37,532 nucleotides of DNA. It comes from Betaproteobacteria bacterium (GTDB taxonomy: Bacteria; Pseudomonadota; Gammaproteobacteria; Burkholderiales; SG8-41). Under the pieces are notes generated by a model. It searched no databases. It was given only the letters and a program-made list of their open reading frames with translations, and had not been told where the DNA came from. Location of the stretch: positions 1-37,532 of the forward strand of contig JACOVL010000076.1 in the NCBI GenBank assembly GCA_016177355.1, given 5' to 3'. Position 1 is the stretch's first letter. Each line of letters begins with the position of its first letter. The position numbers were made by a program, and so were the translations under genes. Shown piece after piece: positions 4,888 to 23,970 of this stretch.

Positions 4888-4900
4888 TGATGAATGCAAA

Positions 4901-5317
4901 GTGCAAAGTGACGACGGGGACAGCATCCGCCGCCGGCGCAAGTGCACCGCCTGCAACAAGCGCTTCACCACCTACGAGACGGTGGAGCTGCGCATGCCGC
5001 AGGTGGTGAAGCAGGACGGCAGCCGCGCCGAATTCGACCTCGACAAGCTGCGCACCGGCTTCATGCGCGCGCTGCACAAGCGGCCGGTGCCGACGCCGCT
5101 GGTGGACGAGGCCGTCGCCACCATCGCCCAGGACGTGCTGTCCCTCGGCGAGCGCGAGATCGGCTCCCGGCGCGTGGGCGAGATGGTGATGCGGGAGCTC
5201 TACAAGCTCGACCAGGTCGCCTATATCCGTTTCGCTTCCGTCTACCGCAGCTTCCAGGGCGTTGACGATTTCCGGGACGCGATCAAGGAAGTCCAGCACC
5301 CCGCCGGCAAAAAGTAA
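4901..5317 (+). CDS. nrdR: transcriptional repressor NrdR, N-terminally shortened (first CxxC of the zinc ribbon absent)
   Basis: GTG start. (M)[25 protein letters not shown] aligns to residues 17 onward of canonical NrdR. The ATP-cone follows ([13 protein letters not shown]). An in-frame TGA at 4850-4852 and the lack of any start codon before 4901 exclude a longer N-terminus. Confidence 0.85.
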
Positions 5318-6413: not shown

Positions 6414-7003
6414 TGTTTTCCGGGATCGTCGCGGTGGTGGGGCGGGTGTCCCGGGTGGACCCGGCGGCGGGCGGCGTGCGCCTGCGCGTGGACGCCGGCG
6501 GCCTCGACCTGGGCGATGTCGCGATCGGCGACAGCATCGCCGTGAACGGCGTGTGCCTTACCGTGGTGGCGAAATCGGCGCAGACTTTCGAGGCGGACGT
6601 GTCACGGGAGACATTGAACAGCAGCATGGGCTACACGGCGGGGAGCCGCGTCAACCTGGAGAAGGCGCTGCGCCTGGCGGACCGCCTCGGCGGCCACCTC
6701 GTGAGCGGCCACGTGGACGGCGTCGGCACGGTGAAGCATTGCAGGCCGGCCGGCGACAGCCGCCTGCTGGCGGTGGCGGCGCCGCGCGGGCTGGCGAAAT
6801 ATATCGCGCGCAAGGGCTCGATCGCGGTAAACGGCGCGAGCCTGACGGTGAACGCGGTGAAAGGAGCGGAATTCACGGTGAATCTCATCCCGCACACTCT
6901 GGCCGCCACCAATCTGGGCGACCTGCGCGCGCGCGACCCGGTCAACCTGGAAGTGGATATGCTGGCGCGTTACGTCGAGAGGTTGAAGGGGAACCGCAGA
7001 TAA
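6413..7003 (+). CDS. ribE: riboflavin synthase (alpha chain)
   Basis: MFSGIV...GDSIAVNGVCLTV...GSIAVNGASLTV shows the duplicated lumazine-binding repeats. Its ATG overlaps the ribD stop (TAATG). The last codons and the stop lie inside a decamer repeat array. Confidence 0.93.
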   Translation: MFSGIVAVVGRVSRVDPAAGGVRLRVDAGGLDLGDVAIGDSIAVNGVCLTVVAKSAQTFEADVSRETLNSSMGYTAGSRVNLEKALRLADRLGGHLVSGHVDGVGTVKHCRPAGDSRLLAVAAPRGLAKYIARKGSIAVNGASLTVNAVKGAEFTVNLIPHTLAATNLGDLRARDPVNLEVDMLARYVERLKGNRR

Positions 7004-7151
7004 ACGCAGATACACGCAGATAACATCAAGACTAGAGACAAGTGAAGTAAACAGGGCCGACAGGTATTAAGGGATTGCGGATTCAAAGGTCTTATCAGGT
7101 GGTTCAGCTTATTTTTGGTTTTTATCCGCGTTTATCTGCGTTTATCTGCGG
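6995..7151. repeat. inverted pair of 3 x 10-nt tandem arrays flanking a 96-bp AT-rich core
   Basis: Left array: cgcagataaa/cgcagataca/cgcagataac (6995-7024). Right array: tttatccgcg/tttatctgcg/tttatctgcg (7121-7150). The reverse complement of the right array matches the left at 27 of 30 positions. Confidence 0.9.
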
Positions 7152-7173
7152 CTAATATGGGTTTGAATTTGAT

Positions 7174-8316
7174 ATGAGTTCGAGACAGGAAACGGGCATC
7201 AGCCCCATTGCCGAGGTCATCGCCGAGCTGAAGGCCGGCCGGATGGTGGTGCTGGTGGACGAGGAGGACCGCGAGAACGAGGGCGATCTGCTGATGGCGG
7301 CGGAGTTCGTGACCGCGGACGCGGTCAACTTCATGGCGCGCTACGGCAGGGGGCTCGTCTGCCTCACGCTGACCGAGGAGAAGTGCCGGGCCCTCAACCT
7401 CCCGCTGATGGTCGTCAACAACCGCTCGACGCTCGGCACCAACTTCACGGTATCCATCGAGGCCGCGGCGGGCGTCACCACCGGCATTTCCGCCGCCGAC
7501 CGCGCGCGCACCGTGCAGGTCGCGATCCGGGCCGACGCGGGCCCGCGCGACCTGGTGCAGCCGGGCCACATCTTTCCGCTGATGGCGCAGGAGGGCGGCG
7601 TGCTGGTGCGCGCCGGCCACACCGAGGCCGGCTGCGATCTCGCCCGGCTCGCGGGCTGCGCGCCGGCGGCGGTGATCTGCGAGATACTCAAGGACGACGG
7701 CGAGATGGCGCGGCTGCCGGACCTCGTCGAATTCGCCGCGCAGCACAAGCTGCGGATCGGCACCATCACCGACCTCATCCATTACCGCGCGAGCAATGAA
7801 TCGCTGGTCGAACGGATGACGGAGCGCGACATCGAGACGGCGCACGGGAAATTCCGTCTCCACGTCTACAGCGACCGCATCGGGGACGCGACCCACCTCG
7901 CGCTGGTGCGCGGCAGGCCCGTTCCCGGCCAGGAGACGCTGGTGCGCGTGCACGAGCCGCTGTCGGTGATGGACCTGCTCGACGTGGAAAGCCGCAGCCA
8001 CTCCTGGAACTTCAACGATGCGCTCGCCGCGGTGAGCCGCGCCGAGCGCGGGGTGATCTTGCTGATGCACCGGGTGGAAACGGCGGCCGAACTGCTCGAG
8101 CGCGCGCGGCCGCGCGAGGGCCAGGCGGCGGCGCAGGGCATCGCGCTCCGCAACTACGGCATCGGCGCGCAGATCCTGAAGGACCTCGGCGTGAAGAAGA
8201 TGCGGCTGCTGGCGCTGCCGCGCCGCATGCCCAGCATGGCGGGCTTCGGCCTGGAAGTCACCGGCTACTTGCAGCCAGGTGGGGGAACGGGAGAGCGGGA
8301 GAGCGGGAGAGCGTGA
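7174..8316 (+). CDS. ribBA: 3,4-dihydroxy-2-butanone-4-phosphate synthase fused to a degenerate GTP cyclohydrolase II-like domain (RibBX-type RibBA)
   Basis: The N-terminal domain has typical DHBP synthase sequence (DEEDRENEGDL, GHIFPL, RAGHTEA). The C-terminal domain aligns to GCHII, but VRVHSECxTGD...CDCG is replaced by VRVHEPLSVMDLL...SHSWNF, with no zinc cysteines. The last 12 codons are encoded by an octamer array. Confidence 0.9.
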   Translation: MSSRQETGISPIAEVIAELKAGRMVVLVDEEDRENEGDLLMAAEFVTADAVNFMARYGRGLVCLTLTEEKCRALNLPLMVVNNRSTLGTNFTVSIEAAAGVTTGISAADRARTVQVAIRADAGPRDLVQPGHIFPLMAQEGGVLVRAGHTEAGCDLARLAGCAPAAVICEILKDDGEMARLPDLVEFAAQHKLRIGTITDLIHYRASNESLVERMTERDIETAHGKFRLHVYSDRIGDATHLALVRGRPVPGQETLVRVHEPLSVMDLLDVESRSHSWNFNDALAAVSRAERGVILLMHRVETAAELLERARPREGQAAAQGIALRNYGIGAQILKDLGVKKMRLLALPRRMPSMAGFGLEVTGYLQPGGGTGERESGRA

Positions 8317-8361
8317 GGGGGAAGGCGTATTTTCGATCTCCCGACCTCACGACCTCCCGGA
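8288..8361. repeat. tandem 8-nt array with an imperfect inverted partner array
   Basis: Left: cgggagag x3 then cgtgaggg (8288-8319). Right: ctcccgac/ctcacgac/ctcccgga (8338-8361), whose reverse complement resembles the left units. Fills the ribBA-ribH gap and contains the ribBA stop. Confidence 0.85.
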
Positions 8362-8367
8362 ACTTAA

Positions 8368-8844
8368 ATGGCGCGGAAAGACGACATCGAGCGGCTCGAG
8401 CCGGATCTGAACGGCGCCGGGCTGCGCATCGGCATCGTGATGAGCCGCTTCAACCAGGACGCGGGCGAGGGGCTGCTGTCGAGTTGCGCCGCGGCGCTCG
8501 CGAAGCACGGCGTGCGCGCCAGGGACATCCGGGTCGTCACCGTCCCGGGCGCGCTGGAGGTGCCGCTCGCGCTGCAGAAGATGGCGAACACCGGGCGTTT
8601 CGACGCGCTGATCGCGCTCGGCGCCGTGATCCGGGGCGAGACCTACCACTTCGAGATCGTCGCCAGCAAGTCGGCGGAAGGCATCGCCTCGGTCGCGCTC
8701 GACACCGGGGTGCCGGTCGCGAACGGCGTCCTTACCACCGACAACGACGGCCAGGCGCTGGCGCGCGTGGCGCGGAAAGGCGCCGACTGCGCCGCGGTGG
8801 CGGTGGAGATGGCCAACCTGATGAGGCGGCTCGGTGAAGACTAG
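8368..8844 (+). CDS. ribH: 6,7-dimethyl-8-ribityllumazine synthase
   Basis: 158 aa. Contains [32 protein letters not shown] and GVLT, the classic RibH motifs. Confidence 0.95.
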
Positions 8845-9253
8845 CCGCCGGCGCTCGCGCGAATTCGCGCTGCAGGGCCTCTACCAGTGGCAGCTCTCCG
8901 GGGCCGAGCCCGCGGCCATCGCCCGCCAGCTCGCGGAAGCGAAGGGCTTCGACAAGGTGGACCCCGAGTATTTCAAGGCGCTGATCGAGGGCGCGGTGGC
9001 CGCGGCGCCCGCGCTCGAGCGCGAGATCGCGCCGCTGCTCGACCGGGAGTATTCGCGCCTGAGCCCGGTCGAGCGCGGCATCCTGCTGCTCGGGGCCTAC
9101 GAGCTCGCGCACCGGCCGGAGGTGCCGTACCGGGCGGTGATCAACGAGGCGGTGGAGCTCGCCAAGAGCTACGGCGGCACCGGCGGCCACAAGTACGTGA
9201 ACGGCGTGCTCGACAAGCTCGCGGCGCGGTTGCGCGCGGCGGAAAAGCAGTGA
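8834..9253 (+). CDS. nusB: transcription antitermination factor NusB
   Basis: GTG start overlapping the ribH end. [15 protein letters not shown]... and the conserved position after ribH support the call. Confidence 0.92.
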
Positions 9254-9256
9254 GTG

Positions 9257-9502
9257 ATGGACGAGCGGCTGAGAAAACGGATCATCCTGTTCTACCTGGG
9301 GGGCATCCTCAATGTCTTCCTCGGGCTCTACGTGGCGATCGAGGGCGTCAGCTTCCTGCCGGCGGACACGGTGCGCTGGCTCGTGTTGTTTTTCTTCATC
9401 TTCGCCGCGGTGGATTTCTATTTTCCCCGCGCGATGAAGAAGAAATGGCAGGAAGACCAGGCCAGGCTGAGCGCGCAGCGCCCGCCCGCCGGCGACCAGT
9501 GA
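9257..9502 (+). CDS. small hypothetical membrane protein (2 predicted TM helices)
   Basis: 81 aa from ATG 9257 (GTG 9254 is also possible). High GC3 like its neighbours. Two hydrophobic segments and a basic/acidic tail. It starts 1-4 nt after the nusB stop, and its stop overlaps the thiL GTG (GTGA at 9499-9502). Confidence 0.5.
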   Translation: MDERLRKRIILFYLGGILNVFLGLYVAIEGVSFLPADTVRWLVLFFFIFAAVDFYFPRAMKKKWQEDQARLSAQRPPAGDQ

Positions 9503-10479
9503 CGGGCAAATCCCTCTCCGAGTTCGAGATCATCCGCCGCTACTTCACGCGGCGGGCGCGCCGCGCCGTGCTGGGCGTGGGCGACGATGCGGCGCTGGTA
9601 CGCGCGCCGCGCGGCCGCGAGATCGCGCTGACCACCGACATGCTGGTCGGCGGCCGGCATTTCTTCGCCGATGCCGACCCGGAGCGGCTCGGCCACAAGG
9701 CGCTGGCGGTCAATCTGTCGGACCTGGCGGCGATGGGGGCGGCGCCGCGCTGGGCGACGCTCGCGCTCGCGCTGCCGCGGGTGGACGCGCGCTGGCTCGC
9801 CGCCTTCTCGCGCGGCTTTCTGCGCCTCGCGCGGCGCCACGGTGTGGAACTCATCGGCGGCGACACGACGCGCGGGCCGCTCGCGGTGTGCGTGCAGATC
9901 GCAGGCGAGGTGCCGGCGGGGCGGGCGTTGCGGCGCGACGGCGCCCGGATGGGGGACGACATCTGGGTTTCGGGCACGCTGGGCGACGCGGCGCTCGCGC
10001 TCGCCGCGCTGAAACGCAAGATTGCACTTTCGGGGCGGGAACGCGCGCTGCTGGAGCGCAGGCTGCACGCGCCGGCGCCGCGCGTCGCGCTGGGCATGGC
10101 GTTGCGCGGCGTCGCGCGCAGCGCGATCGACGTTTCCGACGGGCTCGTCGCCGACCTCGGCCACGTGTGCGAGCGCTCGGGCCTGGCGGCGGTGATCGAG
10201 GCGGCGCGCATCCCTCTCTCGCCTGTCGTAAAAAGTAAAATAAAACAACCAGTTGCGATGAATGCCGTGCTCTCGGGTGGCGACGACTACGAGCTCGTCT
10301 TCACCGCCGGGCGCACCCGGCGCCGGGCGATCGCCCGGCTGTCGCGGCGCCTGCGCCTGAGGCTTACCCGCATCGGTAGAATCATCCGGCGGCGGCGCGG
10401 GGGCTCGCTCGTTACCGTGCTCGGTGATGACGGCGGGCCGGTGCGGTTGCCACGCGCGGGGTTCGATCATTTTGGCTGA
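9499..10479 (+). CDS. thiL: thiamine-monophosphate kinase
   Basis: GTG 9499. SEFEIIRRYF...LGVGDDAALV...TTDMLVGGRHF...GGDDYELVFT are typical ThiL motifs. Confidence 0.9.
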   Translation: MTGKSLSEFEIIRRYFTRRARRAVLGVGDDAALVRAPRGREIALTTDMLVGGRHFFADADPERLGHKALAVNLSDLAAMGAAPRWATLALALPRVDARWLAAFSRGFLRLARRHGVELIGGDTTRGPLAVCVQIAGEVPAGRALRRDGARMGDDIWVSGTLGDAALALAALKRKIALSGRERALLERRLHAPAPRVALGMALRGVARSAIDVSDGLVADLGHVCERSGLAAVIEAARIPLSPVVKSKIKQPVAMNAVLSGGDDYELVFTAGRTRRRAIARLSRRLRLRLTRIGRIIRRRRGGSLVTVLGDDGGPVRLPRAGFDHFG

Positions 10480-10966
10480 TCTCGTAATCAGGCCCTCCTG
10501 GCGTTTCCTCCTGCGTCATCCCGCGCATTTCGTCGCGTTCGGCGGCGGCGCGGGGCTCGCGCCGGTCGCGCCGGGGACGTGGGGCACGCTGCTCGCGCTG
10601 CCGCTCTACGCGCTCGTCGCGCCGCGGCTCGCCCCGATGGAATTCCTGCTGCTCGTCGCGGCGTTGTTCGGGCTCGGCGTCTGGGCCTGCGGCGTGACGG
10701 GCCGCGCGATCGGCGTCCCCGACCACGGCGGCATGGTGTGGGACGAGCTGGTCGCGTTCCTGCTGGTGCTGTTCTTCGTCCCGGACACGCTCGAGTGGCA
10801 GGCGGCGGCGTTCCTGCTGTTCCGGCTGTTCGATATCCTCAAGCCGCCGCCGATCCGCTATTACGACCGCACTTTCAAGAGCGGCTTCGGCGTGATGCTC
10901 GACGATCTCGTCGCCGCGTTTTACACGCTGATCGTCCTGGCGGTTGCGAAGACGATCATCGAGTGA
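10472..10966 (+). CDS. pgpA: phosphatidylglycerophosphatase A
   Basis: HFVAFGGGAGLAPVAPGTWGTL matches the PgpA signature. The start is uncertain: TTG 10472 overlaps the thiL stop by 8 nt, and ATG 10424 would overlap thiL by 56 nt. Confidence 0.82.
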   Translation: MADLVIRPSWRFLLRHPAHFVAFGGGAGLAPVAPGTWGTLLALPLYALVAPRLAPMEFLLLVAALFGLGVWACGVTGRAIGVPDHGGMVWDELVAFLLVLFFVPDTLEWQAAAFLLFRLFDILKPPPIRYYDRTFKSGFGVMLDDLVAAFYTLIVLAVAKTIIE

Positions 10967-10980
10967 CGCAAGATAGAACG

Positions 10981-11469
10981 ATGCCCGACCCCGTCCTATA
11001 CCGGCTCGCAGAAGAAGTCGGCACGGCGCTGAAATCCCGCAAGCTGATGCTGGCGACCGCCGAGTCGTGCACTGGCGGCTGGATTTCGGAAGCGGTCACC
11101 ATGGTCCCCGGCAGCTCGGAATGGTTCGAGCGCGGCTTCGTTTCCTACACCTACGTCTCCAAGCGCGAGATGCTGGGCGTGAAGGAAAAAACGCTGGAAC
11201 AGCACGGCGCGGTGTCGGAAGAAGTCGTGCGCGAGATGGCGAGCGGCGCGCTCGCGCGCTCCCACGCCCAGGTCGCGGTGGCCGTAAGCGGCGTGGCCGG
11301 CCCGACCGGTGGCACGCCCGACAAGCCCGTCGGCACCGTCTGCTTCGCGTGGTGCGCGAAGGGCGGCACGCCGCGCTCGGACACGCAGCACTACTCCGGC
11401 GACCGCGAGGCCGTGCGCAAGCAATCCGTCGCTCACGCGCTCAAGGGCGTCCTCGCGCAACTCAAGTAG
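10981..11469 (+). CDS. pncC: nicotinamide-nucleotide amidohydrolase (CinA C-terminal domain protein)
   Basis: 162 aa. LATAESCTGGWIS...VSGVAGPTGGT is the typical PncC/CinA-C motif set. Confidence 0.9.
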   Translation: MPDPVLYRLAEEVGTALKSRKLMLATAESCTGGWISEAVTMVPGSSEWFERGFVSYTYVSKREMLGVKEKTLEQHGAVSEEVVREMASGALARSHAQVAVAVSGVAGPTGGTPDKPVGTVCFAWCAKGGTPRSDTQHYSGDREAVRKQSVAHALKGVLAQLK

Positions 11470-11475
11470 CGTAAG

Positions 11476-11539
11476 TGGGGTCAGTGTAAGATTTCCGCAG
11501 TGATACAGGCCGGCCGACGGATAAGTTACACTGACCCCA
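11476..11539. repeat. 14-bp perfect inverted repeat with a 36-nt spacer
   Basis: TGGGGTCAGTGTAA (11476-11489) and TTACACTGACCCCA (11526-11539). The spacer contains the palindrome GGCCGGCC. Lies 7 nt after the pncC stop. Confidence 0.8.
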
Positions 11540-11647
11540 ATTGCGTTTCGTCCGCTATCGACATGGGCCTGCACCTAGTGCCCAGGCTAATCCCCTAATC
11601 CACGATGCCGCCGACGTGCGGGACTTCCGGTCCCGTTGACTTTGATG

Positions 11648-11663
11648 CATTACCGTGGTAATG
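11648..11663 (+). promoter_or_regulatory. palindrome upstream of vapB, candidate autoregulatory operator
   Basis: CATTACC-GT-GGTAATG is a perfect 7-bp inverted repeat ending 9 nt before the vapB ATG. AbrB/MazE-type antitoxins typically bind palindromes in their own promoters. Confidence 0.4.
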
Positions 11664-11671
11664 TGACAATC

Positions 11672-11935
11672 ATGTCGCTCGCCCAGTCCAAACTGACCGC
11701 CCAAGGCCAGATTTCCGTGCCCTCCGAAATTCGCAAGAAACTCGGGGTCGGGCCCGGATCCATCCTCGAGTGGGACGAGAAGAACGATGAGATTATTGTC
11801 CGGAAAGCCGGGCGGCACACCTCGGCGGACGTGCACGAAGCGCTGTTTTCTGACGGCGGCCCCAACCGAAAAGCATCCGCAAACGTGAAGGATGGCATCA
11901 GAAAGTACATCCGGCAGAAGCATGCACGCCGTTGA
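11672..11935 (+). CDS. vapB: AbrB/MazE/SpoVT-family antitoxin (VapB-like)
   Basis: MSLAQSKLTAQGQISVPSEIRKKLGVGPGSILEW is a looped-hinge-helix (SpoVT/AbrB) N-terminus. 87 aa. Overlaps the downstream PIN gene by 14 nt. Start could be TTG 11636. Confidence 0.8.
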   Translation: MSLAQSKLTAQGQISVPSEIRKKLGVGPGSILEWDEKNDEIIVRKAGRHTSADVHEALFSDGGPNRKASANVKDGIRKYIRQKHARR

Positions 11936-12302
11936 TACCAATCTTCTCGTGCGACTGATCGTACGTGACGACGCGGATCAGGTAAAAGCTGCGGAGGCGT
12001 TTGTCGCAAAAGGGGCGTGGGTGTCCCACCTCGTGCTGGCAGAAACGCTATGGGTTCTCGACGCGGTTTACGATCGCTCACCCGCGCAGATCGCGAATGC
12101 GATCGACCGAATGCTGAACCACAAGGAATTGACGCTCCAGGACGCGGATATCGTCACGCTGGCGCTGGTTCATTTCCGTTCCCGTCCCTCACTGGGTTTC
12201 TCCGATTGTCTCGTTTTGGAAATTGCCCGCAAAGCCGGTCATCTACCGCTCGGAACCTTCGACCGGAATCTTGCAAAACTTGACGGTACACGCCGCCTGT
12301 AG
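11922..12302 (+). CDS. vapC: PIN-domain ribonuclease toxin (VapC-like)
   Basis: MHAVDTNLLVRL (conserved first Asp), acidic residues later (LAETLWVL, GFSDCLVLEIA) and a TFD motif near the C-terminus. 126 aa. Confidence 0.85.
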   Translation: MHAVDTNLLVRLIVRDDADQVKAAEAFVAKGAWVSHLVLAETLWVLDAVYDRSPAQIANAIDRMLNHKELTLQDADIVTLALVHFRSRPSLGFSDCLVLEIARKAGHLPLGTFDRNLAKLDGTRRL

Positions 12303-12584
12303 CGCGTTCGATCTTCACTACACAACCCAAACGGTGGCCGGCTTTGGCCGTAAACCGCCCGGTTTGGCAAAGGTCAGAAACGCCTCCGAACCCGACACCC
12401 CACGGGTGTCTGTAGAAAAAGGCAATGGGGTAAGGACGTTGGCGCGCTTTGCCGGCGCGCGGGCGCGGTTTGACGGGCGGGTCGTCAACTCAACACTCGC
12501 GTCGCGCGTTTTTAGGGCATGGCGTGCTCGGAACGGGAGCGGCTGGTTTAAAATACACGGCAACGAACAACAAGGATCCCCCTC

Positions 12585-13625
<1,041 letters not shown>

Positions 13626-14040
13626 CCTGCGCGCGCGGGCGCTGCGGCTGCTCGCCCGCCGCGAGCACTCGCGGCGGGAGCTCGAGCGCAAGCTCGCCGT
13701 TCACGCCGAGGACCCCGCCGAGGTCGCCCGCGTGCTCGACGAGCTCGAGGCGCGGGGCTGGCTGTCGGAGCGCCGGGTGGTGGAGCAGTTGGTGCACGCG
13801 CGCCGCTCCCGTTTCGGCGCGCGGCGCATCGAGCGGGACCTGCTCGACAAGGGAATTTCCGCCGACGCAGTCGCAGCGGCGCTCCCCGGGTTGAGGGAGA
13901 GCGAGCTGGAGGCGGCGCGCGCGGTGTGGGCGAAAAAATTCGGCAGGCTGGCGCGCACGCCGGCCGAGCGCGCGCGCCAGGCGCGCTTCCTGCAGGGACG
14001 CGGCTTCGCCTTCGACGTCGTGATGAAAGTCATCAAGGGC

Positions 14041-14124
14041 AGGGATGAGGGATGAGTGCGGAGGGATGAGGAATGAAAACCAAATTTCAATACCCTAGTC
14101 ACCAGTCACGAGTCACCAGTCACG
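14041..14124. repeat. two adjacent, unrelated tandem heptamer arrays
   Basis: Array 1: agggatg/agggatg/agtgcgg/agggatg/aggaatg (14041-14075). Array 2: agtcacc/agtcacg/agtcacc/agtcacg (14097-14124). Confidence 0.9.
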
Positions 14125-14459
14125 CTTTTGCGGTAGTGATGGCGCTTACCGCCATCACGTTGACAGGCTGCGACTATCTTCCGTTCGGCTATACGCCGGT
14201 CAGGGAGATCACCGCGGCGCCCGCGCAGTTCGAAGGCAGGGAGGTCAAGCTCAAGGGCAGGGTGCGGGGCATTCTGAAGCTGGGGGGCCTCAAGGCCTAC
14301 ACGCTGCAGGACGACACCGGGCGGGTGACGGTGACGACGGACGGGCAGCTGCCCGCCGAAAACGCCGAGGTGGCCCTCAAGGGCACCGTGAAAAGCGCGC
14401 TGATCGTCGGCGGCTCGGCGGTCGGCCTGCGGGTGGAAGAAACGAAGCGTTTGCGGTAG
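14073..14459 (+). CDS. small lipoprotein, function unknown
   Basis: ATG 14073 has GGAGG 8 nt upstream. The signal peptide has a basic n-region, a hydrophobic core AFAVVMALTAITL and a lipobox LTGC. The mature part is about 95 aa and beta-rich. The alternative start ATG 14139 has no SD and lies in a 9-bp hairpin stem. Confidence 0.65.
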   Translation: MKTKFQYPSHQSRVTSHAFAVVMALTAITLTGCDYLPFGYTPVREITAAPAQFEGREVKLKGRVRGILKLGGLKAYTLQDDTGRVTVTTDGQLPAENAEVALKGTVKSALIVGGSAVGLRVEETKRLR

Positions 14460-14464
14460 ATTCT

Positions 14465-14542
14465 GAGCTTTCAGCGATCAGCTTTCAGCATTCGGCCAAA
14501 GCAAGGCCCGTTTCAAGCTGATAGCTGACGGCTGACAGCTAG
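14465..14542. repeat. inverted pair of tandem heptamer arrays (imperfect long hairpin)
   Basis: Left: agctttc/agcgatc/agctttc/agcattc (14466-14493). Right: aagctga/tagctga/cggctga/cagctag (14515-14542). The arms are complementary except for 1-2 positions per heptamer. Fills the lipoprotein-alaS gap. Confidence 0.85.
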
Positions 14543-14547
14543 ACCAC

Positions 14548-17165
<2,618 letters not shown>

Positions 17166-17169
<4 letters not shown>

Positions 17170-18125
17170 AGAAAATCCTTATGTTGACCGTGGTGATGCC
17201 GATCTTTGCTCCGCCGGTGGCAGCGCAGGCTTATCCCGCCAAGCCGGTCGAGCTCGTCGTCCATACCTCGGCGGGTGGTGGCGGCGATCTCTTCGCGAGG
17301 ACGGTGGCGGAGATCATCACCAGGGGGAAACTGCTGCCGCAGCCGCTCGTCATCAGCAACAAGGGCGGGGGTGGCGGTGCGATCGCCTTCAACTACGTCG
17401 CCGGCAAGCGCGGCGATCCGTACACGCTGCTGGCGGTGCCGAGCACGGTCCTGCTCACCGCGCCGCTGCGCAGCGGGCTGGACATCGGGCTCGACAAGTT
17501 CACCCCGCTGGCATCGCTCGGCCTGGATTTGAACGCCCTGACGGTGCGCGCGGATGCGCCGTACGCGACGATGGCCGACTTTATCGAGGCGGCGAAGCGC
17601 GAGCCGGATTCGATCGTCATCGCGTTCGGCTCGATCGGCGGCACCGCGCATTACCTCGCGTACCGGATCGAGAAAGTCACCGGCGCGCGCTTCAGGACCG
17701 TCTCGATGAAGGGCGCCCAGGCGGTGCTGTCCGTGCTGGGAGGGCACGTGCACGCGACCACGGAAAACCTGAGCGAAGTCATGGGACACGTGGAAGGGAA
17801 GAAGATGCGGGTCATCGGCGTGCCCGCCGGGCAGCGTCTTGCCGCAGCGCCCGGCATCCCGACGCTGCGGGAGCAGGGATACGACATCCGTTCGGGCGTG
17901 AGGCGCGGTTTCGCAGCGCCCGCGGGCATACCGAAGGAGGCGGCGGTGGTGCTCGAAGCCATGCTGGAAAAGGTCCACGAGAGCGCGGAGTGGAAGGACT
18001 ACGCCGCGCGGAACCTGCTGGAGAATACCTACCTGAACGGGGCGGCTTTCGCCCGCTATCTCGCCGAACGCCAGCCCGAGATGGTCCAGTTCATGAAAGA
18101 CGCGGGGCTCGCCGGGAAACCTTAG
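17166..18125 (+). CDS. Bug-family (TctC-like) tripartite tricarboxylate transporter substrate-binding protein
   Basis: Signal peptide [32 protein letters not shown], then a typical Bug/TctC start and length (about 320 aa). Its ATG overlaps the alaS stop (ATGA). No tctA or tctB nearby. Confidence 0.82.
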
Positions 18126-19507
18126 AACGGCAGTCTCGCGTCCTTCTTGACCGCCAGGATCGCGCGGCGGAAATCTTCCTGGATCCTTCGCAGGGCGGCT
18201 TCGTCGTCGGCCTCGAACCGCAGCACCACGACCGGCGTGGTGTTGGAGGGCCGCGCGAGGCCGAAACCGTCGGCGTACTCGACCCGCAGGCCGTCTATCG
18301 TGATCACCTCGCGCGCGCCGTCGAACTTCGCCGTCTGCCGCAGCTTGTCCATCAAGGCGTAGTTCTCGCCCTCGGCGAGCGCGATGTGCAGTTCCGGCGT
18401 CGAGACCGCTTCCGGCAGCGCTTCCAGCACGGCGCCGGGGTCGCGCTCGCGGGAGAGTATCTCGAGCAGCCGCGCGCCGGCGTAGAGCCCGTCGTCGAAC
18501 CCGTACCAGCGGTCCTTGAAGAAGATGTGCCCGCTCATCTCGCCGGCGAGCGGCGCGCCGGTTGCCGCGAGCTTCTGCTTGATGAAGGAGTGGCCGGTCT
18601 TCCACAACACCGGCTTGCCGCCGTGCTCCCGCACCCAGGAAAACATATAACGTGTTGATTTTACGTCGAATATTATCTCCGCTCCCGGATGGCGCGTGAG
18701 CACGTCCGCGGCGAACAGCATCAGCTGGCGGTCGGGATAGATGATTTTTCCGCTGCGCGTGATCACGCCGAGGCGGTCGCCGTCGCCGTCGAACGCCAAG
18801 CCGATCTCTCCCTGACCCGCGGCAAGCGCGCGTTGCAGGTCGGCGAGATTTTCCGGCTGCGACGGATCGGGGTGGTGGTGGGGAAAGCTGCCGTCCACCT
18901 CGCAGTAGAGCTCGGCCACCTCGCAGCCGAGCCGGCGGTAGAGCGCGGGTGCGACGGCGCCCGCCACGCCGTTGCCGCAGTCGACGACGATCTTCATCGG
19001 CCGCGCAAGCTTGACGTCGCCGGCGATGCGGGCGAGATAAGGCTCGCGCACGTCGTGCCGGCGATAGCCGCCGCCGCCGTGCGCAAGGTCGCCGCGCTCG
19101 ATACGTCGGCGCAGGCCCTGTATCGCATCGCCGGCGAGGGTCTCGCCGCCCAGCATCACCTTGATGCCGTTGTAGTCGGGCGGATTGTGCGAGCCCGTGA
19201 CCATCGCGCAGGAGAGCGTCCCCAGGTGGTGCGCCGCGAAGTAGAGCATGGGCGTCGGCACTTGCCCGACGTCCGTCACGTCCACGCCGCTCTCCCGCAG
19301 CCCCCTCGCGAGCGCGGCGGAAAGCTCCGGGCCGGAATGGCGCCCGTCGCGGCCGATGACGACCGCGGGCTGGCGGCGGTCGCGGGCTTCCGAGCCGATC
19401 GCGCGGCCGATCGCCTCGACGACCGCGGCGTCGAGCGTGCGGCCGACGATGCCGCGGATGTCGTAGGCCTTGAATATCTCGGGCGGGAGATGAACGCGCT
19501 CGTTCAT
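18122..19507 (-). CDS. algC: phosphomannomutase/phosphoglucomutase
   Basis: IFKAYDIRGIVG, the active-site loop TGSHNPPDYNGIK, DGDGDR and GEMSGH. 461 aa. Confidence 0.92.
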   Translation of the reverse strand: MNERVHLPPEIFKAYDIRGIVGRTLDAAVVEAIGRAIGSEARDRRQPAVVIGRDGRHSGPELSAALARGLRESGVDVTDVGQVPTPMLYFAAHHLGTLSCAMVTGSHNPPDYNGIKVMLGGETLAGDAIQGLRRRIERGDLAHGGGGYRRHDVREPYLARIAGDVKLARPMKIVVDCGNGVAGAVAPALYRRLGCEVAELYCEVDGSFPHHHPDPSQPENLADLQRALAAGQGEIGLAFDGDGDRLGVITRSGKIIYPDRQLMLFAADVLTRHPGAEIIFDVKSTRYMFSWVREHGGKPVLWKTGHSFIKQKLAATGAPLAGEMSGHIFFKDRWYGFDDGLYAGARLLEILSRERDPGAVLEALPEAVSTPELHIALAEGENYALMDKLRQTAKFDGAREVITIDGLRVEYADGFGLARPSNTTPVVVLRFEADDEAALRRIQEDFRRAILAVKKDARLPF

Positions 19508-19551
19508 AGCCTGCGAATTATCTCACGCGCATCGCCAGATGCCGGTGAACC

Positions 19552-20556
19552 CTATTTCCCGTTTCCTGAAGTGAAGAATTCCAGCACGCGCCGCGGCAGC
19601 CAGTCGAAGTTGCCGGGAGGGGCGCCGCCGACGAAGCCGACGTGCCCGCCTTCCCCGGGTTGCTCCAGCGTCACCGCGGCGGATACCTCGTCGGCGCGGG
19701 GCAGCGCCGCGGCCGGGAGGAACGGGTCGTTCCTGGCGTTGATGACGAGGGTGGACACGCGGATATTCCTCAGCCCCGGCTTGCTGCTCGCGCGCGTCCA
19801 GTAATCGTCGGTGTCCCGGTAGCCGTGCAGCGGCGCGGTGACGAGATCGTCGAACTCGCGCAGCGTGCGCGACGCGCGCACCGCGCCGGCGTCGTAGAGC
19901 CCGGGGAACCGTTCCAGCTTGGCGAGGCTTTTCACCCTCAGCGTTTTCAGGAAATTGCGCGCATAAACGAGGTTGAAACCCTGGCCGAGCGCATCGCCCG
20001 AGGCCATCAGGTCGAGCGGGGCCGAGACGGCGGCTGCGGCGTCGATCACGCGGACCGCGGCATCGCCGCTTTCTCCCAGCCACTTCAGCAGCGCGTTGCC
20101 GCCGAGCGAAATACCGACCGCGTAGAGCGGCGCGCCGGGATTTTGCGCGCGCAGCCGCCGCAGGATCCAGTCGATCTCCGGCGCGTCGCCCGAGTGGTAG
20201 GCGCGCGGCAGCCGGTTCGGCTCGCCGCCGCATCCCCGGAAGTGCACGACCACGCCGCGCATGCCGCGCCCGCGCAGCGCGGCCATCAAGGCCAGCGCGT
20301 AGTGGCTGCGCGAGCTGCCTTCGAGGCCGTGGAACAGCACCACCAGGGGCGTTTCCTCTTGAACCTTGAACTTTGAACCTTGAACCGGGCTTTCCGCCCA
20401 GTCGACATCAATGAAATCGCCGTCGGGCGTGTCCCAGCGGCTGCGCCGGTAGGCGGCGCCGGGCCGCGGCATCAGCGTCGCCGCGTAGAGGGTCTGCAGG
20501 TGGCCGCCCGGCAGCCAGCGCGGCGCGGCGTATGGCGGGGGATCAGTCAAAACCAT
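19552..20556 (-). CDS. alpha/beta-fold hydrolase, YheT-like
   Basis: PLVVLFHGLEGSS, nucleophile elbow GISLGGN, and DDPF...GGHVGF near the C-terminus. Collinear with E. coli YheT as I remember it. Confidence 0.85.
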   Translation of the reverse strand: MVLTDPPPYAAPRWLPGGHLQTLYAATLMPRPGAAYRRSRWDTPDGDFIDVDWAESPVQGSKFKVQEETPLVVLFHGLEGSSRSHYALALMAALRGRGMRGVVVHFRGCGGEPNRLPRAYHSGDAPEIDWILRRLRAQNPGAPLYAVGISLGGNALLKWLGESGDAAVRVIDAAAAVSAPLDLMASGDALGQGFNLVYARNFLKTLRVKSLAKLERFPGLYDAGAVRASRTLREFDDLVTAPLHGYRDTDDYWTRASSKPGLRNIRVSTLVINARNDPFLPAAALPRADEVSAAVTLEQPGEGGHVGFVGGAPPGNFDWLPRRVLEFFTSGNGK

Positions 20557-20618
20557 AAAGCCGGGCGGGATTGGTGATGAATACCCGCTTGCGCGCGGCT
20601 TCGTCCGGCACCCACTCC

Positions 20619-22127
20619 TTATTTGGTCTTCACGTAACGGGCGGCGCTCGTTCCGGCAAGCTTGCCGAACACCGCGCCGGAGGTGAGCCCCGTGCCCCCC
20701 GGGTAATTGTGGTAGAAAATGCCGCCCACCATCTCGCCCGCGGCGTAGAGGCCGGGGATCGGCTTGCCGGCGGTGTCTTCGACTTCACCCTCCCGGCTGA
20801 TCTTCACGCCGCCGAAGCTGAAGGTGACGCCGCAGGTCACGCCGTAGGCCTCGAACGGCGGCTCGGCCACGGTGTTCGCCCAGTTCGACTTGTTGATCCG
20901 CAGGCCCGTGGTGCAGCGGCCGTCCTTGACCGCCATGTTGAAGGGCACGTCGGTGCGCACCGCCTTGTTGTACTCGAGGATCTCGCGCAGGCAGGCCTCG
21001 GCGTTCACCCCTTCGAGCTTCTTCACCAGCTCCTCCAGCGTGTCGGCGCGCGCCTTGGTCACCTGCTTGATGCGGTACTCGTCGCGCAGCATCGGAATGA
21101 TCTTGGCGTCGAAGATCTGCCACGCGAACATGCCCGGCTGCTCCAGGATCACCCGGCCGTACCTGGCGTAGGTGTAGTTGCGGAAGTCCGCCCCCTCGTC
21201 CACGAAGCGCTCGCCGCGCGCGTTCACCATGATGCCCCACGGGTAGCTGTGCTTCTGGAACTGGTCGCCGACCGCGAGGTCGCCGAAAGGGGGCGCGTTC
21301 ATGTCCCAGCCCACCGCGTGGCATCCCGACCAGTGGCCGTAGGACATGGCGCCCGCATCGAGCGCCATCTGGATGCCGAGCCCGGTGTTGTAGCGGGTGC
21401 CGCGTACCTTGGCGAGGTCCCATCCCGGGCCGAGGTAGCGCGTGCGCATCTCGGCGTTGGACTCGAATCCCCCGCACGCCAGCACCACCGCCCTGGAGCG
21501 GATCTCGACGTTCCTCCCCCCGTGCTTCGCCCGCACGCCGAGCACGACGCCGTCGTCGCCGGTCATCAGGCTGATGGCCGGCGTTTCGTAGAAGATCCTG
21601 ATGCCTTCCCGTTCGCAGGCCTTGTGCTCGTTCTCGATCAATCCCGGCCCGCCGCCCCAGGTTTCGGCCGCGAGCCCGCCCCAGAACTTGTAGCGCTTGC
21701 CGCCGTCGACCTTGTACGACTGGCGCCCGTAGCTCGCCTGGAACCTGACGCCTTTCTTGCGCAGCCACACCAGCGTCTCGAAGCTGCGCGTGATCAGGAT
21801 CTCGCACAATTCGGGGTCGGTCCGGTACTGCGTGATGCGGCCCATGTCGTCGTAATAATGCTCGGCGGTGTAGGCGCCGTAGTCATGGGTCTTCTTCTCC
21901 GCCTCGGTCAGATCGGGAATAAGCTGCGCGAGGTCGTCCACGCCGTTGTAAACCACCCGCATCAGGCCCGCGGTGTAGCGGCTGTTGCCCCCGCAATCCG
22001 CTATCGGCGCGGCCTCCAGGAGGATGACGGACGCGCCGCCCTCGCGCGCGGCGAGCGCCGCGCTGCAGGCGGCGTTGCCGGCGCCGACGACGATCACATC
22101 GGGCTTGCTAAAATCGGTGGTGCTCAT
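20619..22127 (-). CDS. FAD-binding dehydrogenase, tricarballylate dehydrogenase (TcuA)-like / fumarate reductase flavoprotein-like
   Basis: ATG at 22127 gives MSTTDFSKPDVIVVGAGNAACSAALAAREGG (dinucleotide-binding fold), plus a C-terminal GLYAAGEMVGG motif. The Pro/Ala-rich extension upstream to 22217 overlaps the preceding gene and is rejected. Confidence 0.82.
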   Translation of the reverse strand: MSTTDFSKPDVIVVGAGNAACSAALAAREGGASVILLEAAPIADCGGNSRYTAGLMRVVYNGVDDLAQLIPDLTEAEKKTHDYGAYTAEHYYDDMGRITQYRTDPELCEILITRSFETLVWLRKKGVRFQASYGRQSYKVDGGKRYKFWGGLAAETWGGGPGLIENEHKACEREGIRIFYETPAISLMTGDDGVVLGVRAKHGGRNVEIRSRAVVLACGGFESNAEMRTRYLGPGWDLAKVRGTRYNTGLGIQMALDAGAMSYGHWSGCHAVGWDMNAPPFGDLAVGDQFQKHSYPWGIMVNARGERFVDEGADFRNYTYARYGRVILEQPGMFAWQIFDAKIIPMLRDEYRIKQVTKARADTLEELVKKLEGVNAEACLREILEYNKAVRTDVPFNMAVKDGRCTTGLRINKSNWANTVAEPPFEAYGVTCGVTFSFGGVKISREGEVEDTAGKPIPGLYAAGEMVGGIFYHNYPGGTGLTSGAVFGKLAGTSAARYVKTK

Positions 22128-22137
22128 CGCTTTCCTT

Positions 22138-22593
22138 TCAGTGCAGCGTCTTCGCTCCGCGCAGCGGCTCGGGATCGCCGCCGCCGGAAGCGCTGCCGGC
22201 GGGGGCGGGGGAGGCATGATGCGCGACCATGCGCCACCCGCGTTCGGTACGCTGGTAGACGTTGGTGGCGATCACCGGGTTCGCCGGACGCTGCTCGCCG
22301 GCGACCGTGATGTATTCGTAGGCGCTGTGCACGGCAAGCATCATGCCCTGCACGCTCTGCTGATCGCGCAACTGGAACCGCAGCGTCTGTCCGGCAGCGA
22401 AGATCCGCCGCCAGGACTCGCGCACTTTCTCGACGCCGCTGACGCGCGGCGCGCCGGGATGCACGCAGTAAATGTCGTCGTCGTCGGCCCAGACCGACAT
22501 CATGGCATCCAGGTCGCACTTGGTGAAAGCCTCGTAGAACGCGGCTTCGGCGTCCTGTGGGCTGGAAAACAGCGCTTTTTTCACGCCGGGCAT
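22138..22593 (-). CDS. SnoaL-like / NTF2-fold (DUF4440-like) protein
   Basis: 151 aa. AFYEAFTKCDLDAMMSVWADDDDIYCVHPG is the typical N-terminus of NTF2-like small proteins. Lies 10 nt upstream of the FAD dehydrogenase. Confidence 0.65.
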   Translation of the reverse strand: MPGVKKALFSSPQDAEAAFYEAFTKCDLDAMMSVWADDDDIYCVHPGAPRVSGVEKVRESWRRIFAAGQTLRFQLRDQQSVQGMMLAVHSAYEYITVAGEQRPANPVIATNVYQRTERGWRMVAHHASPAPAGSASGGGDPEPLRGAKTLH

Positions 22594-22619
22594 GATGGCG
22601 GGACGGTCTACTGGCGCGG

Positions 22620-23633
22620 TCAGGCGATTCTAGCAGATCGCACCGCCGCGGAAACGCGCTCGGGCGTGAGCTGCATCATGCAGTTGAAATGGCCGAGCGG
22701 GCACACCCGCCTGAAGCACGGGCTGCACGGCAGGTCGAGCTTCAGTATGATGGCGGCCGGCGACAGCGGCGGGGTAAACGCGGGGCTCGACGAGCCGTAG
22801 AGCGCGATCACGGGCTTGCCGAGCGCGGCGGCGACGTGCATCAGCCCGGAATCGTTGCTCACCACGAGCCGCGCCGAGGCCAGCACGTCCATGGCTTCGC
22901 CGAGGGTGGTTGCGCCGCACAGGTTGCGGCAGGCGCCGCCGCTCGCGCCCTCGATCTCCGCGCCGATGGCGGCGTCGTTGGGCGAGCCGACCAGCCACGC
23001 TTCCCACCCTTCGGCGGCGAGCTCGCGCGCGAGCCGCGCGAAATAGGCCGCGGGCCAGCGCTTGGCGGGGCCGTATTCCGCCCCCGGGCACAGCACGATG
23101 ACCGGGCGCGGGGACTCGAGACCGAGCTTCATCAGCGTCGCGCGGCGCGCAGCTTCGTTCGCCCGCAGCGCGGGAACGGGCAGGGGCAGGGGCGGCGCCG
23201 CGCCGGGGGGGTGCGCGAGCGCGGCGAAGCGCTCGGCCATCCGCGGCAGGCGCGCCGGATCCAGCCGCCGCGCGTCATTCAGCAGTCCCCAGCGCAGCTC
23301 GCCCACGTAGCCGGTGCGCCGCGGGATGCCGGCGAAAAACGGAACGAGCGCGGACTTGAAGGTATTGGGCAGCACGATGGCCTGGTCGTAGCCCTCGCGC
23401 GCCAGTTCGCGGCCCAGGCGCCGCCGCTCGGAGAGCTTGAGATCGCCGTGGATGAAAGGGCTGGCGATCGCCCGCCGCACTTCCGGCATGCGCTCGAACA
23501 GCGGCAACGTCCATGGCGGCGCGAGCACGTCGAGCGCCGGGCCGGCGTGGCGCGCGTGCAGGAGCTTCAGCAGCGGCTGCGCGAGCACCGCATCGCCGAC
23601 CCACGAAGGACCCACAACCAGGATGCGCTGCAT
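22620..23633 (-). CDS. waaF: ADP-heptose--LPS heptosyltransferase II
   Basis: MQRILVVGPSWVGDAVLAQPL, SNDSGLMHVAAALGKPVIALYGSS, and a length of 337 aa. Confidence 0.9.
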   Translation of the reverse strand: MQRILVVGPSWVGDAVLAQPLLKLLHARHAGPALDVLAPPWTLPLFERMPEVRRAIASPFIHGDLKLSERRRLGRELAREGYDQAIVLPNTFKSALVPFFAGIPRRTGYVGELRWGLLNDARRLDPARLPRMAERFAALAHPPGAAPPLPLPVPALRANEAARRATLMKLGLESPRPVIVLCPGAEYGPAKRWPAAYFARLARELAAEGWEAWLVGSPNDAAIGAEIEGASGGACRNLCGATTLGEAMDVLASARLVVSNDSGLMHVAAALGKPVIALYGSSSPAFTPPLSPAAIILKLDLPCSPCFRRVCPLGHFNCMMQLTPERVSAAVRSARIA

Positions 23634-23652
23634 GTGTTGTGAGTCCTTCTGT

Positions 23653-23756
23653 AGGGATGAGGGATGAGGGATGAAGGATGAGGGAAAAACCTGAACTGGC
23701 TTCGTTCCTGTTGGCTGGTCTCCTCCGCCCTCATCCCTCCGCCCTCATCCCTCGGG
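23653..23756. repeat. inverted pair of tandem heptamer arrays of the GGGATGA family
   Basis: Left: agggatg x3, aaggatg, aggga (23653-23687). Right: cctccgc/cctcatc/cctccgc/cctcatc/cctcggg (23722-23756), whose reverse complement is agggatg/agggcgg alternating. Same unit family as 14041-14075. Confidence 0.9.
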
Positions 23757-23766
23757 CGAAGGACAC

Positions 23767-23970
23767 TTAGTGTCCGGAGCCCTTGGCCCCGCCCTTGAGG
23801 GTATAGCGCGTGCCGCAGTAGGGGCAGAGCGCCTCGCCGGTCTTCTCGATCGGCAGGAACACGCGCGGATGGGCGTTCCACAGCATCATGGACGGCATCG
23901 GGCAGTGCAGCGGCAGGTCCGCGGCGGCGACCTCGATGTGGCGCCGCGTGTTGACGGTTTTCCCGCTCAT
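23767..23970 (-). CDS. small zinc-finger domain protein
   Basis: 67 aa from ATG 23970: MSGKTVNTRRHIEV...LHCP...CPYCGTRYTL. The motifs HCP and CPYC suggest a zinc knuckle. The position between ilvE and waaF is one I recall from betaproteobacteria. Confidence 0.7.
   Translation of the reverse strand: MSGKTVNTRRHIEVAAADLPLHCPMPSMMLWNAHPRVFLPIEKTGEALCPYCGTRYTLKGGAKGSGH

Follow-up and report, generated by a model that had tools for sequence, protein, structure and literature searches.

Introduction

Heptameric tandem repeats of cyanobacteria are said to have been described by Mazel et al. in 1990 as short tandemly repeated repetitive (STRR) sequences. The heptamers GGGAATC of Xanthomonas and GGGGA(C/T)T of Nostoc follow the positional rules that we report below; G-quadruplexes have been proposed for them and their function was left open (Rehm et al. 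2015, PMC4692102, which also cites Mrazek et al. 2007 for heptameric long simple sequence repeats of large GC-rich genomes). TAACTGA direct repeats are common to Beggiatoaceae, cyanobacteria and Bacteroidetes, with no known transfer mechanism (MacGregor 2015, PMC4679880). Close in build is the Coxiella 23S rRNA intervening sequence (IVS), where an open reading frame (ORF) of the PF05635 (S23p) family lies in the loop of a 28-bp inverted-repeat stem with variable-number direct heptameric repeats at its 5' side; RNase III cleaves the stem in vitro, and the S23p IVS was termed selfish by its authors, who left its mobility unexplained (Warrier et al. 2016, PMC4990558). The Avd-like accessory proteins found with diversity-generating retroelements also make up the PF05635 family (PMC10053308). 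Here we describe arrays of 7-, 8- and 10-nt units at gene boundaries in a 37,532-nt contig (JACOVL010000076.1, C115 in our numbering, hereafter the window) of a Betaproteobacteria bacterium, a groundwater metagenome-assembled genome (MAG; GCA_016177355.1, coded G000; 1.70 Mb, 147 contigs, 66% GC, 72% complete), and compare them across 25 genomes of its genus (coded G000, G001 and so on; L-numbers denote loci).

We propose that the arrays are probably the arms, about 27-28 nt long, of small, selfish palindromic insertion elements, which we term periodic-arm palindromes. In sister species the arrays are the arms flanking two families of minigenes, one encoding a PF05635 protein and the other a GxxExxY nuclease, a link that the original prediction, made from the letters of the window, had missed.

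Results

Arrays of short units lie beside stop codons

Genes of G000 were called with our own codon-usage caller, which makes start codons approximate genome-wide; 91% of the genome is coding and 147 kb is non-coding. Tandem arrays were scored with Tandem Repeats Finder (TRF). The non-coding DNA holds 110 arrays of period 7, 8, 10 or 14 with a score of at least 40, against 2.3 ± 0.9 expected from dinucleotide shuffles. Genome-wide, these four periods are 7-10 times denser per kb in non-coding than in coding DNA, and periods 6, 9 and 12 are not denser there. A complementary partner lies within 260 nt of 71 of the 216 non-coding arrays, compared with 5 in a control using the complement without reversal. 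Among the 115 array-bearing spacers, 86 separate co-directional, 17 convergent and 12 divergent genes (1.20, 1.08 and 0.35 per kb), an approximately 3-fold depletion between divergent genes. The median distance from element edge to stop codon is 8.5 nt, with 19% of edges overlapping the stop, and the next start codon lies a median of 20 nt from the element. The elements lodge a few nucleotides from the stop codon at gene junctions, mostly inside operons, where they replace ATGA-type overlaps or spacers of 0-10 nt. Both the enrichment over shuffles and the bias towards gene ends that the original prediction had supposed hold genome-wide.

The same prediction had seen no consensus between loci, a view that gives way at the scale of the genome, where about a dozen unit families recur. 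Three of them account for 18 (AAACGCAGAT), 14 (AACGCCGATG) and 10 (AGGGATG) arrays. The two decamers occupy about 45 loci and have defined ends (AACCGCAGAT...ATCTGCGGTT) and a family consensus. Recurrent heptamers are AGGGATG, AGTGATG, GTGACTG, AAAGTGC and ACAGCTG, recurrent octamers AGATCGGG and AGAGCGGG, and recurrent 14-mers are of the GCGTGAC type. Arms of every period measure about 27-28 nt (4.0 × 7, 3.4 × 8, 2.7 × 10). On either strand, the arm rich in purines precedes the other (24 vs 4); a test of the 5' arm against the direction of transcription is uninformative for palindromes and shows only this intrinsic rule. Stop codons in all three frames are present in 33% of arrays, compared with 3% in non-periodic shuffles. 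We rejected selection for such stops: a control in which units were shuffled and re-tandemised gave 50.6 ± 5 against 55 observed, and the excess is thus a by-product of period and composition.

These family and arm-length data bear on whether the arrays could be G-quadruplexes or other non-B DNA, or iteron-like sites bound, for example, by a pentameric Avd-like PF05635 product. The GGGATGA arrays do contain four G3 tracts, heptamer arrays mostly have four units (cf. PMC4692102), the decamer period equals one helical turn and arrays flank genes for nucleic-acid-binding proteins. G3 tracts are, however, limited to the AGGGATG/AGGGCGG families; AGTGATG, GTGACTG, AAAGTGC, ACAGCTG and the decamers lack them and share the architecture and copy number, so a quadruplex cannot be the general rationale, and AGTGATG and GTGACTG prefer four units equally. 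Across periods it is the arm length that is constant and not the number of units; the 'four units' of Xanthomonas therefore reflect arm length rather than four G-tracts. Moreover, G000 has arrays and neither minigene product, and the units are too variable for a single reader protein. We consider a binding or structural role of this kind very improbable.

That the arrays are an assembly or binning artefact of a fragmented MAG is hardly conceivable. They are found within 400 nt of contig ends twice as often as expected (13% vs 6.9%) and, in the source metagenomes (X1-X4), array words exceed the sequence around them 10- to 1000-fold in depth. Yet contigs from 4 metagenome runs match the window loci with 0 mismatches, 0 gaps and no indels (these are assembler contigs, which rare unit-number variants could escape), and over 20 independent genomes from the genus share the architecture, as do isolate genomes from other phyla. 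The depth of the array words means that they are common to many community members. Arrays probably break short-read assemblies, and their counts in MAGs are probably underestimates.

Two minigene families ride in arms of different period

PF05635 (23S-rRNA-IVS/Avd-like) genes occur in 20 of the 25 genus genomes. Arrays stand on both sides of 24 of 30 such genes, with complementary flanks in 23 of 30, and their periods are 7 and 14. GxxExxY genes are present in nine genomes of the genus, with fragments in others; here the flanks are inverted-complementary in 25 of 27 genes, TRF reports arrays on both sides of 20 of 27, and the periods are 8, 9 and 10. The cassette units are those of the gene-less hairpins of G000 (GGTGATG, CGGGAGAG, AAGGATG/AGGGATG, GTTCAAC and 14-mers). 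Across the 25 genomes, the number of decamers rises with that of GxxExxY genes (rho 0.55, p 0.005; Fisher p 0.036; uncorrected for phylogeny). The presence of a minigene is a strong predictor of arrays, whereas few arrays have a minigene. Cassettes in G000 itself were sought and rejected, as each of its three array pairs spaced by more than 150 nt proved to be two separate elements with ordinary genes between them. Its loops are not decayed ORFs either, the homology of G000 spacers to cassette loci being limited to the arms. No paper that we found ties arrays to GxxExxY or period classes to the two minigenes, and a literature search by decamer sequence returned chance primer matches only.

Two further features of the cassettes in relatives were observed. 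A motif, GTCAAC-N15-18-CGTTA, lies between the left arm and the minigene start in PF05635 cassettes and some GxxExxY cassettes (for example L202, L204, L160, L168, L173, L183, L205); with a strict regular expression it is found at 6 of 60 cassette loci and close to no array of G000. AAC and CGT are the hallmark of promoters read by extracytoplasmic function (ECF) sigma factors, which the motif resembles. Separately, 3' of the PF05635 cassette at gspE|gspF in two relatives (L185 in G022, L186 in G024), the right arm (CTCGAAA units) is doubled, and its copies are separated by an approximately 18-nt duplicate of the downstream gene start (ATGCGGCACTTCGCCTAC / GTGCCGCAATTCGCCTAC). This may reflect the insertion of a further arm on its own or the duplication of an arm together with its target, and may be a clue to the insertion mechanism.

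The decamer recurs across phyla with its ends

The exact decamer dimer pattern CGCAGATRAACGCAGATRAAC matches at least 120 contigs from many phyla and from archaea. The matches listed include cyanobacteria (Nostocales, Microcoleus), Planctomycetota (Tepidisphaeraceae), Acidobacteriota (Bryobacterales), Gemmatimonadota (Gemmatimonadales), Anaerolineae, Wenzhouxiangella, Alicyclobacillus and Methanoperedens archaea, and many of the cross-phylum matches listed show the inverted arrangement as well. Within the host's order the decamer is confined to its own genus (12 of 25 genomes). GGGATGA arrays are found in 20 of the 25 genus genomes and in one other family, and a reversed-pattern control finds none. 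The lineage-specific mechanism of the original prediction does not survive this distribution.

Two of the cross-phylum decamer pairs (L093, from Wenzhouxiangella limi, and L119) are about 400 nt apart and enclose an ORF of 124-133 aa that matches TIGR04256 GxxExxY and PF13366 PDDEXK_3 (E 1e-41 to 6e-43), its start (MNAD...) being encoded by the array. PDDEXK_3 is listed without an assigned function and with multiple inter-domain transfers (PMC3424549). The decamer end of G000 is identical to the Wenzhouxiangella cassette end at 29/29 nt, including the non-repeat flank ATTGAAACCGC. Decamer loops, such as that at 7024-7120 of the window, fall into a few homologous subfamilies common to unrelated loci (contigs C79 and C87, 92% over 73 nt; C82 and C61, 85% over 47 nt), with a median GC of 0.48 against 0.66 for the genome. 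Judged from these alignments, the decamer class has demonstrably been dispersed as a unit. The original prediction had left a choice between slippage and a site-specific process that seeds arrays at 3' ends; the second is the closer half, and a pure slippage origin is not supported for the decamers, given their shared non-repeat flank and loops.

Orthologous junctions are occupied, empty or rewritten

Comparison of orthologous spacers confirmed the expectation that the architecture persists in relatives while the units change. At ribE|ribBA the two genes overlap by ATGA in G013 and G005. G000 and G012, non-sisters in the RibBA tree, have a decamer element there. Other arrays occupy the junction elsewhere: GGTGAAT in G002 and G014, ACCCATC and CAGGATTAA in the sister genomes G003 and G009, respectively, and CGAGTAA in G011. 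The recX|lipoprotein spacer carries AAGGCAG/AAGGATG variants in G003, G001, G002 and G006 and is empty in G013 and G005. The lipoprotein|alaS spacer measures 0-10 nt in G003, G013, G001 and G005; where it is filled, it is filled after ATTC in all cases, by the family of G000 in G006 as well and by other families in G002 and G014. At gspE|gspF, G000 is empty and relatives hold a cassette, with reverse cases elsewhere; at thyA|folA, G000 has a gene-less GTGATGG hairpin and G006 a PF05635 cassette. As far as these alignments tell, orthologous junctions in the genus turn over fast. Two larger inserts were seen at recX|lipoprotein, a near-perfect palindrome of about 300 nt (GAGAACCTATTTCATATATAGGC ... 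GCCTATATATGAAATAGGTTC) nested in the array element of G002 (L219) and an unrelated insert of about 300 nt in G006 (L221).

Occupancy of the same junctions across species could also mark host-selected regulatory hairpins that stabilise mRNA, serve as translational couplers or insulators, or cause attenuation, as with the repetitive extragenic palindromic (REP) sequences and bacterial interspersed mosaic elements (BIME) of E. coli. The hairpins are stable, lie within about 10 nt of stops and are scarce in divergent promoter spacers, and the array at recX provides a stop, a Shine-Dalgarno (SD) sequence and a start. Many relatives, however, have an ATGA overlap or a 0-10-nt spacer at the very same junction. 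The elements carry no sense-strand G.U signature and no T-run terminator, they also enter coding loops, and the affected genes are ordinary housekeeping genes with no common theme. A host-built device of this sort is quite improbable.

Insertion or growth in place

Several observations weigh against insertion elements. No target-site duplication or consistent direct repeat is found at the borders. Copies of a heptamer family share no flank or loop beyond the array, so their dispersal is not shown and they could have been written in place; we regard the heptamer class as dispersed insertions with less certainty. One family can occupy one site in non-sister species, where the local sequence could template the unit. 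No PF05635 or GxxExxY gene is present in G000, a 72% complete genome, all of whose copies are therefore empty, and the GxxExxY gene accompanies 2 of the 120 cross-phylum decamer matches listed. GGGATGA counts do not track PF05635 counts over the 25 genomes (rho 0.07), and G001, G003 and G005, which lack a PF05635 gene, have 24-32 GGGATGA pattern matches (overlaps counted). Similarity between the enclosed proteins is only weakly correlated with similarity between their arms (rho 0.15, permutation p ~0.025), so the minigenes may be secondary passengers of hairpins that were already there. G.U-compatible mismatches number 20 on the transcribed strand and 31 on the opposite one; with no sense excess, selection at the RNA level is not demonstrated. 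Finally, among RNA runs compared by words, the best shares at most 11% of the words and none contains the organism.

Much of this fits an origin in situ, in which slippage amplifies a 7-10-nt word at a gene end, template switching writes the complementary arm and the minigenes are later passengers. Stop-inclusive duplications would be harmless, intrastrand switching would amount to quasi-palindrome correction, and no element would move. This alternative is kept alive by the shared family at a shared site in non-sisters and by the host stop codon, which usually lies inside the first unit; the variable C-terminal tails of RibE look array-derived. Heptamer copies alike in the array only, a very large unit diversity weakly tied to the enclosed protein, heptamer arrays abundant in genomes without PF05635, and a three-frame stop excess fully accounted for by periodicity and composition also agree with it. 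It fits poorly with the recurrence of identical units, both at dozens of unrelated sites and in other phyla and archaea, with the conserved non-repeat flank of decamer ends and the decamer loops common to several loci, and with loops that are AT-rich and foreign-looking. Nor would it lead one to expect two unrelated minigene families each bound to one period class, or an arm length capped at about 28 nt without drift. Growth in place is, in our judgement, rather unlikely.

Array loci of the window

The five intergenic loci of the original prediction are present as it described them (Table 1), with one architecture built from many units and concentrated at 3' gene ends. It had reported an array followed by its complement at four of the five, and four of the five do fold (z -2.1 to -7.4). 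At ribE, ribBA and recX the array starts at the stop codon or within it, again as described. Every window copy lies between or within protein-coding, ordinary housekeeping genes.

Table 1 Arrays and palindromic elements of the window (positions of the 37,532-nt stretch)
Feature	Coordinates	Strand	Location	Details
TGCAAAG ×2.3 repeat	4895..4910	+	nrdR start	3' of an AATGATG-like stretch
Decamer-armed palindromic element, gene-less	6992..7153	.	between ribE and ribBA	left arm 6992-7023 (AACCGCAGATAAACGCAGATACACGCAGATAA); AT-rich loop ~97 nt; right arm 7121-7153
Octamer-armed imperfect hairpin	8288..8361	.	fills ribBA-ribH gap	left arm 8288-8317 (CGGGAGAG ×3 + CGTGAGGG), includes ribBA stop codon; right arm 8334-8356 (ATCTCCCG / ACCTCACG / ACCTCCCG)
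AGGGATG-type heptamer array, ~5 units	14041..14076	+	after recX	
AGTCACC/G ×4 array	14097..14124	+		GTGACTG family read on minus strand
Heptamer-armed hairpin	14465..14542	.	fills lipoprotein gene-alaS gap	arms 14466-14493 / 14516-14540 (AGCTTTC/AGCGATC ... AGCTGAT/AGCTGAC)
In-frame translated array, CTTGAAC ×4.1 (GTTCAAG-type ×4)	20358..20386	-		encodes VQGSKFKVQ
AGGGATG ×4.7 ... CCTCCGC/CCTCATC hairpin	23653..23756	.	between minus-strand genes 23767-23970 and 22620-23633	arms 23653-23685 / 23722-23753

In the ribE-ribBA element, CGCAGATAAA is repeated three times at 6995-7023 and its complement lies at 7121-7150, the arms being 93% complementary. The ribE frame terminates within the first decamer unit (AAC CGC AGA TAA). 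The RNA fold of 6988-7157 reaches -62.2 kcal/mol (z = -7.4), and the decamer arm is identical at 29/29 nt to the arm of a GxxExxY cassette in G012 (L177). The ribBA-ribH hairpin folds weakly (z = -2.1, 8284-8365); its CGGGAGAG-type octamer family also flanks a PF05635 minigene in G006 (L207). The lipoprotein-alaS hairpin has z = -5.2 (14462-14545), and the hairpin at 23653-23756 has z = -5.8 and -4.6 on the two strands (23648-23760).

The locus downstream of recX is the exception. Its second array is not complementary to the preceding AGGGATG array, and over 14038-14128 the two together fold no better than shuffles (z = -1.0). Within the first array lie the recX stop, a GGAGG resembling an SD sequence and the ATG (14073) of the lipoprotein gene that follows. 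The first unit of an element can provide the upstream stop and, at this junction, the array also supplies the SD sequence and start codon of the next gene. Translation from ATG 14073 would give a lipoprotein signal peptide with an unusually long N-region (MKTKFQYPSHQSRVTSHAFAVV...LTGC; 14073-14135), partly encoded by the AGTCACC array if 14073 is the start. G003 and G001 have the same arrangement with other units, and the lipoprotein genes of G013 and G005 start right after the recX stop.

Of three intragenic or start-codon sites suggested earlier, two stand in some form. The array at 20358-20386 is translated, bearing out the idea that arrays enter coding sequence: it lies in a variable loop of a YheT-like hydrolase, a loop that is short and has no array-coded peptide outside the genus, has the same peptide in G002 and carries other array-coded inserts in other species (LETR repeats, GSRIEDRG). 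The repeat at 4895-4910 is short and weak alone; it is probably a small member of the AAAGTGC family, and its family recurs at 7 loci. The third site (10228-10248) is A-rich, goes unreported by TRF and is not counted.

The window also contains a non-periodic inverted repeat at 11470-11545, directly 3' of a gene ending at 11469, with 28-nt arms (CGTAAGTGGGGTCAGTGTAAGATTTCCG / CGGATAAGTTACACTGACCCCAATTGCG) that are 82% complementary and 20 nt apart; this hairpin is of a different kind from the arrays. A role of the array hairpins as intrinsic terminators, offered in the original prediction, was rejected, as they lie inside operons and lack a T-run: 9 terminator-like sites were found compared with 13 in shuffles, and none is an array hairpin. 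One terminator-like site lies on the minus strand within the loop of the 14465-14542 element.

Discussion

The elements of G000 can be compared with the 23S IVS. Cassettes of sister species have the same build, and G000 itself has inverted arms of about 28 nt with direct heptamers, folding at four of the five window loci. They differ in location, the elements of G000 being found within mRNA spacers of operon junctions and one coding loop rather than in 23S helices 25 or 45. The copies in G000 hold no ORF, both arms are full tandem arrays, and in a second class, with units of 8-10 nt, the gene is that of a nuclease. With the heptamers of Xanthomonas and Nostoc they share an excess in non-coding DNA, about four units, a location within about 50 bp of stops between co-directional ORFs, scarcity between divergent ORFs, occasional inverted pairs and variation between close relatives. 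Here, however, there are many families, most without G-tracts, and 8-, 10- and 14-nt periods as well, and the minigene link and cross-phylum decamer are absent from the earlier description (PMC4692102). Like the TAACTGA repeats of Beggiatoaceae, an identical array recurs in distant phyla, intergenic, in 2-6 copies and adjoining start codons; those repeats are direct, of one unit and 5' of starts, whereas here inverted pairs are common and stop codons are favoured.

As short, gene-less, dispersed intergenic palindromes that outnumber a gene-carrying form, the elements also recall REP, BIME, REP doublets forming hairpins (REPINs) and MITEs (miniature inverted-repeat transposable elements). The decamer class has defined ends and duplicated copies as these do, and terminal inverted repeats are present; the heptamer families share the array only. 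In contrast to REPINs and MITEs, the arms are tandem arrays, no target-site duplication was observed, and the gene-carrying relatives encode a PD-(D/E)XK nuclease (GxxExxY) or a four-helix bundle (PF05635), neither a known transposase. The earlier judgement that neither CRISPR nor classic REP/BIME descriptions apply was right. Rfam 15 gave no gathering-score match in the window or in 19 cassette loci. Searches for the Y1 transposase associated with REP (RAYT, PF01797) gave weak single matches only and none in G003, G004, G005, G009 and G015; a link to it was rejected, G003 and G009 lacking the gene yet having 31-36 GGGATGA-array matches. CRISPR arrays have 24-48-nt repeats with unique spacers, whereas the 7-14-nt units here abut head to tail without spacers. 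Integron cassettes are likewise promoter-less small ORFs with imperfect palindromes (attC) in which structure is kept and sequence is not. Here there are two arms per ORF instead of one 3' attC, and single copies are scattered at housekeeping junctions rather than arrayed beside an intI gene (no search for intI was made).

Taking the arrays as arms of periodic-arm palindromes, we suggest the following course of events. In sister species the loop often houses a promoter-dependent minigene of about 110-130 aa, the four-helix-bundle protein of PF05635 riding in period-7/14 arms and the GxxExxY PD-(D/E)XK nuclease in period-8/9/10 arms, and this nuclease is a candidate for the inserting enzyme of its own class. 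After insertion, arms may turn over quickly through slippage and conversion, which would explain the different units per species at one site. Upon transcription, the roughly 28-bp stem probably acts as does the 23S IVS stem of Coxiella or Leptospira, which RNase III cleaves, and cleavage here would uncouple the neighbouring cistrons. The elements would be mainly selfish or neutral and no host-built regulatory device.

A bolder extension, which we hold to be unlikely, is that periodic-arm palindromes and the two minigenes form a cross-domain mobile element class, with GxxExxY as homing or insertion nuclease, PF05635 as nucleic-acid chaperone and the arms written at the break. The writing could proceed by reiterative short-template synthesis, with a single repeat-adding activity acting on the two 3' ends at a double-strand break. 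Read 5' to 3', the purine-rich strand points inward from either flank, which is what extension of the two ends in the same way would produce. Were this class real, one mechanism would account for the STRR, Xanthomonas and Beggiatoaceae heptamers and for the origin of the 23S IVS.

Heptamer-type repeats of cyanobacteria, Xanthomonas, Beggiatoaceae and many GC-rich genomes have gone for decades without an origin or a function. With arrays as the arms of two minigene families, each having its own period class, and a decamer found from archaea to cyanobacteria, they become experimentally tractable. The elements rewrite the 3' ends, stops and starts of genes, signal peptides and protein loops, and they cause annotation errors at gene boundaries.

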